Program-made: the position numbers and the translations under genes
Shown: piece after piece, positions 3,040-8,874 of the stretch
Numbering within the stretch: the first letter of the stretch is position 1
Layout of the letters: every line of letters starts with the position of its first letter
Source: Candidatus Thorarchaeota archaeon
GTDB lineage: Archaea > Asgardarchaeota > Heimdallarchaeia > Hodarchaeales > Hodarchaeaceae
Direction: 5' to 3'
Assembly (NCBI GenBank): GCA_048882505.1
Contig: JBHLRO010000030.1
Span: 11,350-35,349, forward strand
Length of the DNA: 24,000 nucleotides
Notes under the pieces: generated by a model
Database searches by the model: none
What the model was told of the DNA's origin: nothing
The model's input: only the letters and a program-made list of their open reading frames with translations

Positions 3040-3215
3040 GTGATAGAGGAACGGTGGTTAATCAGGGTAAAAACTGGAGATCCACTGTTTTCTCTGCTGA
3101 AGCAACGAGAGAATACCCACAATAAGAATTTTCGGTTCTATATTTCGAACCAATGGTTCGTCTAAGGAAAAATCTATATAACCAAAGAGTCCTCCCCCCC
3201 CTTAGGTGCACTCTG

Positions 3216-3923
3216 ATGCCAGTCGACCCACAACAAATACCGCTTTCAGGGATTCCCATTGGCATTTTTCTGATGTTTTTGGGTTCACTCCTGGGATTAA
3301 TTCCTTTATATGACCTTGGATTTATAATATTCCTCGGTTCACTAGCAATAGTGTTTATTCAATGGATTAGTAGCGGGGGTATTGCAGAAATGTTAAATTG
3401 GCTTCCATTGGTTTTGATACTGGCAATTGTCTTAACACTTTCGTCTGATTTCGTGAGTCAATCCCCTGAAACTCAAGTTTTTACATGGCCTTTGATACTC
3501 TTCGTTTTAGTGCTGATCCTTGGTTTCATGTTCGCTCAAGGAGGGGATCTAAGTTTTATTATGCCTTTTTTACCGTTTTTATTAGGAATCGGCATAATTG
3601 GAGTGGTAGGCGGGGAATTATTGTGGCAAGACGCGTTTCGGGGTTTGGCTTATAGTATTGGCTTTCTAGGGATTGTGGTTGTGCTTATTTGGCTGCGAGT
3701 CCGTAAAACCCAACGTATGGCACCTATAGTAGGGGATAAGGAACATATGATTGGAAAAACAGGACTAACTCTAAGTTTGATCTCCCCTGACGTTGAAGGA
3801 CGCGTGAGGGTTGGGGGGGCGACTTGGAAGGCACAGTCTGAGGTTAAAATCTATGAGAATGAGCCGATTCAAGTCGTGGGCATTGAAGGCTTGGTTCTCA
3901 AAGTCAAACCAAAATCAAGATGA
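3216..3923 (+). CDS. NfeD-family membrane protein (C-terminal OB-fold NfeD domain)
   Basis: Multiple hydrophobic helices are followed by GKTGLTLSLISPDVEGRVRVGGATWKAQSE...VVGIEGLVLKVKP, the characteristic NfeD C-terminal domain. The start is moved from the ORF-track 3153 to ATG 3216, which has AGGTG (3204-3208) 7 nt upstream. Confidence 0.7.
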   Translation: MPVDPQQIPLSGIPIGIFLMFLGSLLGLIPLYDLGFIIFLGSLAIVFIQWISSGGIAEMLNWLPLVLILAIVLTLSSDFVSQSPETQVFTWPLILFVLVLILGFMFAQGGDLSFIMPFLPFLLGIGIIGVVGGELLWQDAFRGLAYSIGFLGIVVVLIWLRVRKTQRMAPIVGDKEHMIGKTGLTLSLISPDVEGRVRVGGATWKAQSEVKIYENEPIQVVGIEGLVLKVKPKSR

Positions 3924-4045: not shown

Positions 4046-4119
4046 GGGCCGGTGGTCTAGCTCGGTATGACGGCTCCCTCACACGGAGCAGGTCGATGGT
4101 TCAAATCCGTCCCGGCCCA
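4046..4119 (+). tRNA. tRNA-Val (anticodon CAC)
   Basis: Hand-folded cloverleaf:
- Acceptor stem GGGCCGG/CCGGCCC.
- D-arm GTCT/TGAC with one T-T mismatch.
- Anticodon stem GCTCC/GGAGC with loop CTCACAC.
- Variable region AGGTC.
- T-arm GATGG-TTCAAAT-CCGTC.
- Discriminator A.
No encoded CCA and no intron. Confidence 0.9.
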
Positions 4120-7635: not shown

Positions 7636-7675
7636 CGAAAATTTTTAAAGACTCTTAGAACCGCCTTTAATTGAA
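7636..7675 (+). promoter_or_regulatory. Candidate BRE/TATA region for the permuted 5S transcript
   Basis: AT-rich boxes cgaaaatttttaaag (7636-7650) and tttaattgaa (7666-7675) lie 30-70 nt upstream of the first nucleotide of the processing stem (7707). No experimental TSS is available, so this is positional inference only. Confidence 0.25.
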
Positions 7676-7706
7676 TCTAAAGGTACAGAATCTCACGTTG
7701 TATCAT

Positions 7707-7727
7707 GACATCGAGATCCTGCCGGAA
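7707..7727 (+). other. Leader strand of a BHB-like processing stem (GACAU-C-GAG-AUCCUG-CCGG-AA)
   Basis: Pairs with 7877-7892 and 7871-7874:
- GACAU (7707-11) with AUGUC (7888-92).
- GAG (7713-15) with CUC (7885-87).
- AUCCUG (7716-21) with CAGGAU (7878-83).
- CCGG (7722-25) with CCGG (7871-74).
- The 3-nt bulge AAG is at 7726-28. Confidence 0.6.
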
Positions 7728-7876
7728 GTTAAGCCGAGTTTCGTTCTGATCTGTACTGTTATGCGCGAGCTTACGGGAACATCAGAAAACGGGTATTGCC
7801 CGTTCATAGGGCTCGAGTAACACCCGGTCTCATTCCGAAAGATATGAAGGAATTTCTTCATTCCGGGAACCCGGAA
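7728..7876 (+). rRNA. Circularly permuted 5S rRNA-like gene (3' portion, capped helix I, then 5' portion)
   Basis: All canonical 5S elements are present but in rotated order:
- 7728-7741 GUUAAGCCGAGUUU: loop B 3' side and helix II 3' strand.
- 7746-7785 CUGAUCUGUACUGUUAUGCGCGAGCUUACGGGAACAUCAG: helix V, loop E, helix IV, with GCGA as loop D.
- 7788-7793 AACGGG: helix I 3' strand.
- 7794-7798 UAUUG: cap loop.
- 7799-7804 CCCGUU: helix I 5' strand.
- 7805-7808 CAUA: loop A.
- 7809-7817 GGGCUCGAG: helix II 5' strand, pairing with GAGUUU through three G-U and three Watson-Crick pairs.
- 7818-7839 UAACACCCGGUCUCAUUCCGAA: loop B, helix III, loop C.
- 7870-7876 CCCGGAA: helix III 3' strand.
Re-joining 7876 to 7728 gives the archaeal 5S consensus ...ACACCCGGUCUCAUUCCGAA[30 nt]CCCGGAAGUUAAGCC... 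Confidence 0.8.
7840..7869 (+). other. 30-nt insertion in 5S loop C containing a 7-bp hairpin
   Basis: AGAUAUGAAGGAAUUUCUUCAUUCCGGGAA interrupts the otherwise contiguous CAUUCCGAA|CCCGGAAG consensus. The hairpin is AUGAAGG-AAUU-UCUUCAU (7844-7861). CAUUCCG is directly repeated at 7831-7837 and 7859-7865. Confidence 0.6.
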
Positions 7877-7892
7877 ACAGGATCCTCATGTC
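7877..7892 (+). other. Trailer strand of the BHB-like processing stem (A-CAGGAU-C-CUC-AUGUC)
   Basis: Complementary to leader 7707-7721. It is preceded by the 3-nt bulge AAA (7875-7877), which lies on the opposite strand from bulge AAG (7726-7728) across a 4-bp CCGG/CCGG helix. Confidence 0.6.
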
Positions 7893-7926: not shown

Positions 7927-7934
7927 TTGTTTTT
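7927..7934 (+). terminator. Oligo-T archaeal terminator candidate downstream of the 5S transcript
   Basis: TTGTTTTT, with T5 at 7930-7934, lies 38 nt after the end of the processing stem. Archaeal RNA polymerase terminates at T-runs. Confidence 0.35.
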
Positions 7935-8067
7935 AGAATAGACATCGAAGGTTTTCCCCAAGGACCAATGTCCATATTCGTGATTTTTAATGTATATGAA
8001 TCGATTCTTATCAAAGGAATGAAAAAGCAGATTCAAAATCATTTCAGTTTTGGTTGGGACTGTTATA

Positions 8068-8874
8068 ATGGACTGGAAAACATGGGAAATTGAATACCAG
8101 TACATCGTTGAAGAGCTAGGGCTGGATCGCAAATCTGACTCCTATAGTGCCCAGCAACTTGAGGAAATCCTACTAAAGCATGCATCGAATCGTAAAAAAA
8201 CGATTTTGGATAAATTAATTGCAATACTTCAATATCCAATAATTATAGCTGGCGCAGGGCCTTCCTTGGAGAGAGATTTTGAACTGTTGATGATTACAAA
8301 AGGATTACGCAGAGCTTGGGTTATTTCCGCGGATGGGGCCACATCCTTATTGAAGAAGAAGTCCTTAGTCCCTCAGGTTGTGCTAACAGATCTTGACGGA
8401 GACCCTACTGCGATTGAATGGGCAATGAAGAATGGTTCAATCATTTTAATACACGCTCATGGGGACAACATCCATCTCGTAAAATCATTTTGTGAGGTTT
8501 ATGGGCCCAAATTTTCTACCTATCTTGTGTGGGGTACAACACAAACATATCCGGAACATTTATGGAATTTTGGAGGTTTTACAGACGGGGATAGGGCTAT
8601 CTGTTTAGCCCTACATTTTCAATCTCCATTAATAGCTTTAATAGGATTTGATTTTGGGAAAAAAATTGGAAAATACAGTATTCATAATTCCCCTCTCCAA
8701 AAATCTCCTGTCCGTAAAATTAGGAAGTTTGAAATCGCGCTCCGTATTATTTCATCCTCGTATCCTGATCATAAGGGATTTAGATATAATCTCACTGAAA
8801 AGGGGCAAGAAATCCCAGGTTTTACACGAATTATTGCTAACAGATTTTGGCAAGAGTGGGATCGTCTCGTCTGA
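8068..8874 (+). CDS. mptE: MptE-like 6-hydroxymethyl-7,8-dihydropterin pyrophosphokinase (DUF115 family)
   Basis: Family pattern MDWKTWEIEYQYIVEELGLD...IIIAGAGPSLE...VISADGATSLL...VPQVVLTDLDGD...ILIHAHGDN. The start is moved from the ORF-track TTG 8050 to the first ATG at 8068. Confidence 0.7.
   Translation: MDWKTWEIEYQYIVEELGLDRKSDSYSAQQLEEILLKHASNRKKTILDKLIAILQYPIIIAGAGPSLERDFELLMITKGLRRAWVISADGATSLLKKKSLVPQVVLTDLDGDPTAIEWAMKNGSIILIHAHGDNIHLVKSFCEVYGPKFSTYLVWGTTQTYPEHLWNFGGFTDGDRAICLALHFQSPLIALIGFDFGKKIGKYSIHNSPLQKSPVRKIRKFEIALRIISSSYPDHKGFRYNLTEKGQEIPGFTRIIANRFWQEWDRLV

Follow-up and report, generated by a model that had tools for sequence, protein, structure and literature searches.

The gene and its parts

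Between positions 7728 and 7876 of a 24,000-nucleotide (nt) stretch of archaeal DNA lies a 5S ribosomal RNA (rRNA) gene whose two parts stand in reversed order. The stretch, which we call the window, comes from contig JBHLRO010000030.1 of assembly GCA_048882505.1 (positions 11,350 to 35,349), and window coordinates below refer to its (+) strand. Every element of a 5S rRNA can be read directly from the sequence, but the order is rotated: the 3′ two-thirds of the molecule (7728–7794) precedes the 5′ third (7798–7839). GUUAAGCC occupies 7728–7735, and CCCGGAA is found at 7870–7876, 142 nt further downstream. A preliminary description of this DNA had proposed the rotated order, and both the order and all of its coordinates hold when checked against the sequence.

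The upstream part opens with GUUAAG and continues with the 3′ strand of helix II (7734–7742), helix V (7744–7750 with 7781–7787), the region of loop E, helix IV (7758–7764 with 7769–7774) and loop D, and the 3′ strand of helix I (7788–7794). Three nucleotides, AUU (7795–7797), then close helix I at the site where the ends of a normal 5S rRNA would be. Helix I is thus a hairpin, A7788–U7794 pairing with G7798–U7804, and it sits between the two 5S parts. After its 5′ strand (7798–7804) come the CAUA of loop A (7805–7808), GGGCUCGAG of helix II (5′ strand, 7809–7817) and loop B. ACACCCGGUCUCAUUCCGAA fills 7820–7839 and holds the 5′ strand of helix III (CCGG, 7824–7827), followed by loop C up to CAUUCCGAA. 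Loop C is broken by a 30-nt insertion (7840–7869), after which its last C and the 3′ strand of helix III (together 7870–7874) are invariant in all sequences. The preliminary description had placed the loop C elements correctly, but the dots in its string concealed the insertion, which it left uninterpreted.

The conserved loop motifs of 5S rRNA are all found: CAUA or CAAA, ACACCCGGUCUCAUUCCGAAC, CCGGAAGUUAAG (spanning the junction), GUACUG, GUGCGCGAGC and GGGAA. The features of a permuted gene are all there too, with the 3′ part upstream of the 5′ part, the natural termini linked, and leader and trailer paired by a stem of the bulge-helix-bulge (BHB) type. The RNA predicted to be excised from this stem is 119–122 nt long, or 149 nt with the insertion. 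No processing signal is recognizable in the loop of helix I, which measures 3–5 nt across the family.

Relatives of the gene

Relatives came in part from pattern scans, and are given our locus numbers (L) where one has to be told from another. The first pattern, GTTAAGCC...ACACCCGGWCTCATT, was run on one genome per species and matched a single genome contig (L002, from a metagenome-assembled genome, or MAG, of an uncultured archaeon) and zero metagenome contigs. That pattern proved too strict, since GTTAAGTTAGG or GTTAAGTCAGG is what most relatives have. A second pattern scan of metagenomes returned five loci, from which three contigs were kept as permuted 5S genes; L014 and L015 were rejected as GC-rich chance matches. 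Scanning viral_contigs for the canonical junction, as a way of gathering canonical archaeal 5S sequences, gave zero matches.

The final collection comprises 17 contigs and 14 distinct sequences from independent Heimdallarchaeota or Hodarchaeales assemblies, drawn from NCBI MAGs (including records of 1.39, 3.16, and 4.94 Mb), JGI metagenomes and Logan assemblies. In every relative fetched, the permuted 5S gene occupies the space between a DRMBL-lactamase gene and an MptE-like gene. The surrounding order is kept as well: DRMBL-lactamase, intergenic space, MptE-like protein, PTPS, thioredoxin-reductase-like protein and DUF87.

Structural selection on the permuted RNA

Our main alignment (A5) holds the 14 distinct sequences, with the insertion deleted from its three carriers. 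MAFFT runs with the insertion left in (A2) moved the gap to the 3′ end, and the insertion was therefore deleted for A3 and A5. An alignment fitted to a covariance model (A4) misplaced the insertion, its match to the window ending at 7873, and was left out of the counting; E-values from our covariance model are rough. Covariation was counted over a structure of 41 pairs made up of the outer stem, the 4-base pair (bp) helix next to it and helices II, V, IV, and I.

Standard pairs fill 94.4% of the pair cells, and 16 of the 41 pairs have changed on both sides. None of 500 shuffles reached the observed value, although this control overstates significance because the sequences are related. Safer measures are the number of pair types and the controls in which the 3′ partner was slid by one to three columns, which leave 0–2 doubly changed pairs and 27–49% pairing. 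Helices I, II, V, and IV are 88–100% paired, with 4, 4, 4, and 1 doubly changed pairs, respectively. Covariation thus supports the three-way junction of helices I, II, and V together with helix IV. Helix III is uninformative, its columns being almost invariant. Helix I is closed by a pair (alignment columns 103 and 109) that is U·G, G-C, C-G, or U-A in different members of the family and, because it takes these four types, the closure of the hairpin is itself selected. Three pairs of the outer stem are doubly changed (types UA/CG/AU, UA/CG/AU, and CG/UA).

Sequence conservation follows the same boundaries. The excised part is 78–99% identical within the family; outside the close relatives, leader and trailer are 30–56% identical to those of the window. 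The drop in conservation therefore coincides with the predicted cut sites. Together these observations show a permuted 5S arrangement that is real, conserved and under structural selection.

Why standard models miss the gene

At its gathering thresholds Rfam reports no 5S in the window, only a tRNA-Val, and no match to the 5S family RF00001 reaches gathering level at the homologous loci. With thresholds relaxed, RF00001 aligns the 3′ two-thirds of its model to window positions 7694–7794 at 20.3 bits (the gathering score is 38). This alignment runs from GGAAGUUAAG to the 3′ end of the model, with helix III and loop C deleted. L010, which has no insertion, gives two matches in reversed order, of 19.2 and 16.1 bits. 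The upstream one is good only from about model position 49, and model positions 27–51 (ACCCGGUCUCAUUCCGAACCCGGAA) are found downstream. The pair of split, reversed matches foreseen in the preliminary description is therefore seen in L010; the window yields a single subthreshold piece. Neither has a colinear RF00001 match at 38 bits. Apart from RF00001, no Rfam family (and so not mtPerm-5S, the permuted mitochondrial 5S) matched the 5S locus of the window, and the only extra match in L010 is a weak one to RgsA.

The same description had predicted that the sequence would score better once rotated. We turned the predicted excised RNA through every position, aligning each rotation to the Rfam consensus alongside shuffled controls. 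Nine insertion-free homologues score 83–97 when rotated, against 49–57 in gene order and about 37 ± 5 when shuffled, which puts the rotated forms some 9–12 standard deviations over the shuffles. In every case the highest-scoring rotation breaks the RNA at the helix I hairpin or right next to it. With its insertion kept, the window shows a weaker gain (55 rotated, 41 in gene order, 37.6 ± 5.5 shuffled). The assignment of 7728–7794 as the 3′ two-thirds of a 5S thus draws on the Rfam alignment and on covariation in helices II, V, IV, and I, and that of 7798–7839 as the 5′ third on the match to model positions 27–51 in L010, the rotation scan and covariation.

A stem that joins leader and trailer

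The gene is framed by a processing stem, the outer helix of the proposed BHB, in which 7707–7721 pairs with 7878–7892 through 12 Watson-Crick pairs and one G·U, interrupted by two mismatches (C7712·C7887 and A7714·C7885). Pairing, fold prediction and covariation all point to it. A test of this stem in homologues had been suggested, and it comes out in favor: besides the three doubly changed pairs, pairing over the 14 sequences reaches 92% in the nine base pairs closest to the 5S body. ViennaRNA gives the nearest seven a pair probability of about 1 in most homologues. Past 9 bp both the length and the sequence of the stem vary between lineages.

Inside the stem, the leader CCGG (7722–7725) is the 5′ strand of the proposed 4-bp central helix. 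Its partner there is the CCGG at 7871–7874, which in the mature RNA would pair with 7824–7827 instead. The leader element reads CCGG in seven of the 14 sequences, CUGG in two and CCGA in five; by contrast, the rest of the leader is only 34–52% identical to the window outside its closest relatives. On either side of the helix lie the bulges AAG (7726–7728) and AAA (7875–7877), each invariant in all 14 sequences, the second abutting the covarying outer helix. The predicted cuts fall at 7727/7728 and 7876/7877, so that the excised RNA would begin with G7728 and end with A7876. Their position within the bulges follows the rule for BHB substrates. In a canonical pre-tRNA BHB each strand reads helix, then 4-bp helix, then 3-nt bulge, and the same topology is drawn here. 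The stem, the CCGG:CCGG helix and the bulges on opposite strands, all part of the preliminary description, agree with the coordinates.

Two 3-nt bulges and a 4-bp helix can be drawn in all 14 sequences, the helix being intact in nine and carrying an A·C mismatch in five. The strict form with flanking helices on both sides (hBHBh′) is absent: the outer helix is present and covaries, and there is no proper inner helix. The motif is therefore of the relaxed hBH/BHL type, much as had been anticipated from the weakness of the inner helix.

The leader CCGGAA is a direct repeat of the CCGGAA at the 3′ end. Such a repeat would be expected if the gene arose from a tandem dimer, and because of it any symmetric cut within the repeat gives the same product. 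The earlier claim that cutting and ligation would restore the canonical CCCGGAA-GUUAAG junction whichever symmetric cut is used is thus correct at the level of sequence. A companion claim, that the leader CCGG mimics the 5′ strand of helix III, is wrong. The leader CCGGAAG copies the 3′ strand, and it can pair with either strand of helix III because CCGG is palindromic.

A proposed second BHB in loop C

The insertion at 7840–7869 is carried by the window, L003/L004, and L005, and is missing from the 11 other distinct homologues. It can be drawn as a BHB of its own. Its central helix pairs UCCG (7834–7837) with CGGG (7864–7867), its bulges are AAA (7838–7840) and AAC (7868–7870), and its inner helix pairs 7841–7842 with 7862–7863 and then 7844–7849 with 7856–7861. 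Cutting after the second bulge nucleotide on both strands, followed by ligation, would give CAUUCCGAA/CCCGGAA, which is exactly the loop C of the 11 insertion-free homologues. Only 0.3% of shuffled inserts contain a BHB in this restoring register. The three positions that vary among the inserts of the window, L003, and L005 are all unpaired, and in the window the BHB fold is the minimum-energy fold of the isolated region. This BHB too is relaxed (HBh′ type), because the 3′ bulge faces a 5-nt internal loop with helix III beyond.

From its motif register and the comparison with insertion-free homologues, we read the insertion as a putative BHB mini-intron; a retained expansion segment is possible, and the same ambiguity has been discussed for other 5S insertions (PMC7812874). 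As a second BHB, one that the preliminary description missed, it strengthens the case for a permuted gene processed through BHB motifs.

Transcription signals

Upstream of the stem stands an archaeal promoter-like block, TTTTTAAAGACTCTTAGAA (7642–7660), in which a TATA-type box is followed by a conserved downstream motif. The block, (A/T)AT(A/T)TAAAG-CTCTTGAA in general form, precedes the excision site by about 70–95 nt in 16 of 17 loci, the exception being L002, whose A/T-rich box is more divergent. Between block and processing stem the leader can form a hairpin (7664–7683), with CCUUUA (7664–7669) pairing with UAAAGG (7678–7683). In the group of L009–L023 (leaders of L010, L016, L017, L019, and L021) a hairpin of unrelated sequence, GGUUUGU..ACAAAC, occupies the same interval. 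Downstream, a terminator-like oligo-T run is found at 7930–7934, and nearly every homologue that reaches far enough has a T-rich run (4–8 T) within about 60 nt 3′ of the trailer stem. In L007 there is none in the 100 nt examined.

A proposed route from permuted gene to 5S rRNA

What might such a gene make? From the permuted order, its conservation, the covariation (that of the processing stem included) and the transcription signals, all of them observed, we infer the enzymes, the ligation and a circular product. Our preferred account, which we consider fairly probable, is that this is a functional, independently transcribed 5S gene with its halves swapped, whose transcript is cut by the splicing endonuclease EndA and ligated by the RNA ligase RtcB into a closed circle, with the loop C intron spliced out. 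The promoter at about 7642–7660 would drive a five-part precursor: leader; 5S from about position 52 to the 3′ end; the 3-nt loop; 5S from position 1 to about 51, with the 30-nt intron inside; and trailer with T-run. Pairing of leader and trailer would set the AAG and AAA bulges on either side of the 4-bp CCGG:CCGG helix as a relaxed BHB. EndA would cut at the two predicted sites and RtcB would join the new ends, so that the helix III bulge again holds the universal CCCGGAA-GUUAAG junction; once ligated, this would read ...CAUUCCGAACCCGGAA/GUUAAG.... The product would be a closed circle of 149 nt, or 119 nt once the intron has been removed through its own BHB. A 3–5 nt loop on the 7-bp helix I would be its sole noncanonical feature. 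The circle might be kept closed in the ribosome or nicked later in the loop of helix I.

Asgard biology makes this plausible. EndA in these archaea is reported to be of the (αβ)2 type with an L1 loop, which is linked to relaxed BHB cleavage and broad specificity (PMC5829648), and Asgard 16S and 23S rRNAs circularize (PMC12918454); a relaxed substrate and circularization would therefore both be at home in the phylum.

Several results, the folding energetics among them, weigh against the account just given. The CCGA leader of five of the 14 sequences puts its A·C mismatch at the inner end of the 4-bp helix. The inner helix has at most two or three weak pairs (U7729-A7839 and U7730-A7838, or G7728-C7870 with a 2-nt bulge). 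In ViennaRNA minimum-energy folds the leader CCGG pairs with the 5′ strand of helix III, with a probability of about 0.9 in most sequences and 0.3–0.44 in L007 and L009. The BHB is not the minimum-energy fold; its pairing probability is 0–0.16 and, in constrained runs, it lies 0.1–3.8 kcal/mol above this competitor. Covariation cannot tell the alternatives apart because the three CCGG elements are identical palindromes. For the insertion, the intron fold draws its support from the motif; its folding z-score is only −0.9, and the minimum-energy folds of L003 and L005 differ. Compared with a fold containing the mature helix III, the BHB fold is stabler in seven of 11 sequences and 0.2–1.3 kcal/mol less stable in the other four. 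None of the three alternative CCGG pairings costs more than about 6.9 kcal/mol relative to the minimum-energy fold. As modeled, then, the BHB fold is accessible, not preferred.

One alternative is an RNA whose ends are never joined. The gene would again be functional, with flanks removed by EndA without ligation or by other nucleases, and the final 5S would be linear and permuted, with helices II and III bridging a nick at the helix III bulge. The 5S of brown-algal mitochondria likewise stays permuted when mature. Nothing in the sequence demands ligation, permuted mature 5S is known from organelles (PMC4267664), and the helix III bulge, the site of the permutation junction, is among the least obstructed sites of the ribosomal 5S according to Stepanov & Fox (PMC7812874). 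The failure of the BHB to be the minimum-energy fold speaks for it as well. Set against this, the ends that archaeal EndA leaves (2′,3′-cyclic phosphate and 5′-OH) are ligated wherever they have been studied, be it tRNA exons and introns, 16S, or 23S. The 30-nt intron in the window's clade would require ligation anyway to restore loop C, and the exact canonical junction and invariant bulges are left unexplained if the ends never meet. We think a linear product unlikely.

Less likely still is that there is no cut at the bulges at all, with the leader/trailer stem kept as an extra helix off helix III and the insertion kept as an expansion segment. Pairing of the leader CCGG with the 5′ strand of helix III, the minimum-energy fold, would suit this, and large expansion segments occur in Asgard rRNAs (PMC7594248). 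A retained stem fits poorly with the much faster evolution of leader and trailer (30–56% identity, against 78–99% for the body), where only pairing is conserved, as expected of spacers that are removed, and with the differences among lineages in stem length and sequence beyond 9 bp. It has no need of both conserved CCGGAA copies, nor of an insertion BHB whose register is precisely the one that gives back the ancestral sequence. A rearranged pseudogene or an assembly artefact, both raised in the preliminary description, could draw on the Rfam scores below gathering level, the one truncated, degenerate extra copy in L002 and the microvariants of some JGI contigs, and is hardly credible: the identical arrangement recurs in 17 contigs from independent assemblies, with different assemblers and samples, which excludes an artefact, and the compensatory changes in the helices, the conserved body with its invariant loop motifs, and the conserved promoter and terminator show a structure under selection, which excludes a pseudogene.

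Returning to a circle made by EndA and RtcB, one may ask how far it extends. A bolder proposal, which we put forward only tentatively and with distinctly less confidence, is that throughout this Heimdallarchaeota/Hodarchaeales clade the sole 5S gene is permuted and the ribosomal 5S is a covalently closed circle made by the tRNA-splicing enzymes EndA and RtcB, one subclade carrying the first BHB intron in a 5S. We also infer that it is the only 5S gene in the window's genome. Two reports count against a clade-wide claim: the MAG of Ca. Hodarchaeum weybense is described with a 5S gene, as is Ca. Kariarchaeum, whose 5S is reported as ordinary (either may be a canonical copy, a contaminant or a partial match).

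Known systems

Permuted tRNA genes, found among other places in Thermofilum pendens, are built on the same plan. Their 3′ part is encoded ahead of the 5′ part, with a short linker between the natural ends, and a BHB-type motif pairs leader with trailer, so that cutting and ligation restore the internal junction by way of a circular RNA, as we predict here. Such genes are also cited for the nucleus of Cyanidioschyzon merolae (PMC4267664). The present case differs in being a 5S rRNA, with a relaxed BHB and a linker of 3–5 nt that closes helix I as a covarying hairpin. Unlike a permuted tRNA, it has no RNase P or tRNase Z site at which the circle could be reopened, and the circle may therefore be the end product.

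A second parallel is the circularization of archaeal 16S and 23S pre-rRNAs, in which a long leader/trailer stem with a BHB is processed by EndA and a ligase into a circle (PMC7758197; PMC12918454); for the 5S, the same enzymes would be at work. In archaea a circular or permuted rRNA can be the ribosomal form, including the permuted 23S of Pyrococcus (PMC7758197; PMC12918454), and circular 23S rRNA has been reported in ribosomes (PMC12918454). The 16S and 23S genes are colinear, however, and their circularization joins remnants of spacer; here the gene itself is permuted and ligation would create an essential internal junction of the mature RNA. The 5S is stated not to take this BHB route to a circle in any species examined to date (PMC12918454). 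Low-level 5S circles of unclear meaning have been seen in Sulfolobus and Halobacterium.

Permuted 5S itself is known only from stramenopile mitochondria, brown algae among them, where the RNA stays permuted (mtPerm-5S; PMC4267664). There, too, helix I is replaced by a closed hairpin, the ends have moved and standard 5S models miss the gene. The organellar RNA has its ends at the loop A junction and involves neither BHB nor ligation, whereas in the archaeal gene a processing stem flanks the ends, which lie at the helix III bulge. As for the insertion, BHB introns in the 16S and 23S genes of Thermoproteales and Desulfurococcales (PMC4496867) are likewise short insertions in rRNA genes in which 3-nt bulges flank a helix, and 5S expansion segments (PMC7812874) likewise sit at surface-exposed sites. 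Ours differs from the 16S and 23S introns in its length of only 30 nt and its relaxed HBh′ motif.

The searchable literature yielded no description of a permuted or circular 5S in archaea at large, Asgard archaea, Heimdallarchaeota or Hodarchaeales, in keeping with the preliminary description, whose author knew of no BHB-processed permuted 5S gene in archaea. Reports of a BHB intron in a 5S gene were likewise not found. As far as that literature shows, a permuted nuclear-type 5S gene dependent on splicing enzymes would be new.

Implications

If our account is right, BHB-driven circularization extends to the third rRNA, and ribosome biogenesis in these archaea depends on EndA and RtcB. A ribosome with a circular 5S also becomes conceivable. 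A permuted gene may explain why, for two closed Heimdallarchaeum genomes, Wu et al. state that 5S genes "could not be predicted" (PMC8813620). It may also explain MAG quality scores in which 5S is counted as absent; the supplements of PMC9723677 contain no per-MAG 5S table that we could find. Our permuted model (R1), or a rotated RF00001, would fix the annotation. More often than any other, this lineage is placed beside the eukaryotes. Hodarchaeales strains are now in culture, which makes the prediction directly testable.

Variation at the locus and neighboring features

The MptE-like neighbor of the 5S gene (8050–8874, P0001) places the window among Asgard archaea labeled Heimdallarchaeota or Hodarchaeales. 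Its own NCBI label is Candidatus Thorarchaeota archaeon, in line with the label that the submitter gave to the window's record, and its close relatives are labeled Heimdallarchaeota, Hodarchaeales, or Promethearchaeota; the Thorarchaeota label is probably a taxonomic misassignment of the MAG. The 5S gene shares the strand of the MptE-like gene in the window, L003, L005, and L007, and lies on the opposite strand in L002, L009, L010, L011, L017, and L019–L023, with the order of the flanking genes kept. The small 5S gene has been inverted in place.

In L002 the intact copy is preceded, some 350 nt upstream, by a second, weak match to the permuted 5S model (3188–3376, (+), 48.6 bits). This match resembles the gene of the L010 type in its leader and over roughly its first 85 nt (GACUCUG..GUUAAGUUAGG), and is degenerate from there on. 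It looks like what is left of a truncated pseudogene next to an intact gene of the window type, and the pair hints at replacement or duplication at the locus.

Local duplications occur elsewhere in the family. In L019 (9560–9660, (−)) an insertion of 44 nt repeats CCGGTCTCATTCCGAACCCGGAAACAATATCCCCTGG, which covers helix III, loop C, and the trailer stem; L020, whose neighboring protein is identical, is without it. A duplication of this type could create a permuted gene or a loop C intron, or it could be an assembly variant. Three JGI contigs that encode the same MptE-like protein, L021 (5437–5625), L022 (1–177), and L023 (5437–5619), all on the (−) strand, have differing 5S genes. That of L022 is clean, that of L021 has a 6-nt CTGTTG duplication in the region of helix IV, and that of L023 is without 16 nt of leader, the 5′ strand of the outer stem included. 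These differences reflect either variation in the population or errors of assembly.

The only tRNA in the loci is tRNA-Val(CAC), at 4046–4119 (+) in the window. It is intronless and offers no intron-type BHB of the same lineage for comparison. The tRNA is 65% G+C in a window of about 41% G+C, and it is found at the same syntenic position in L001, L003, L010, L017, L019, and L021.

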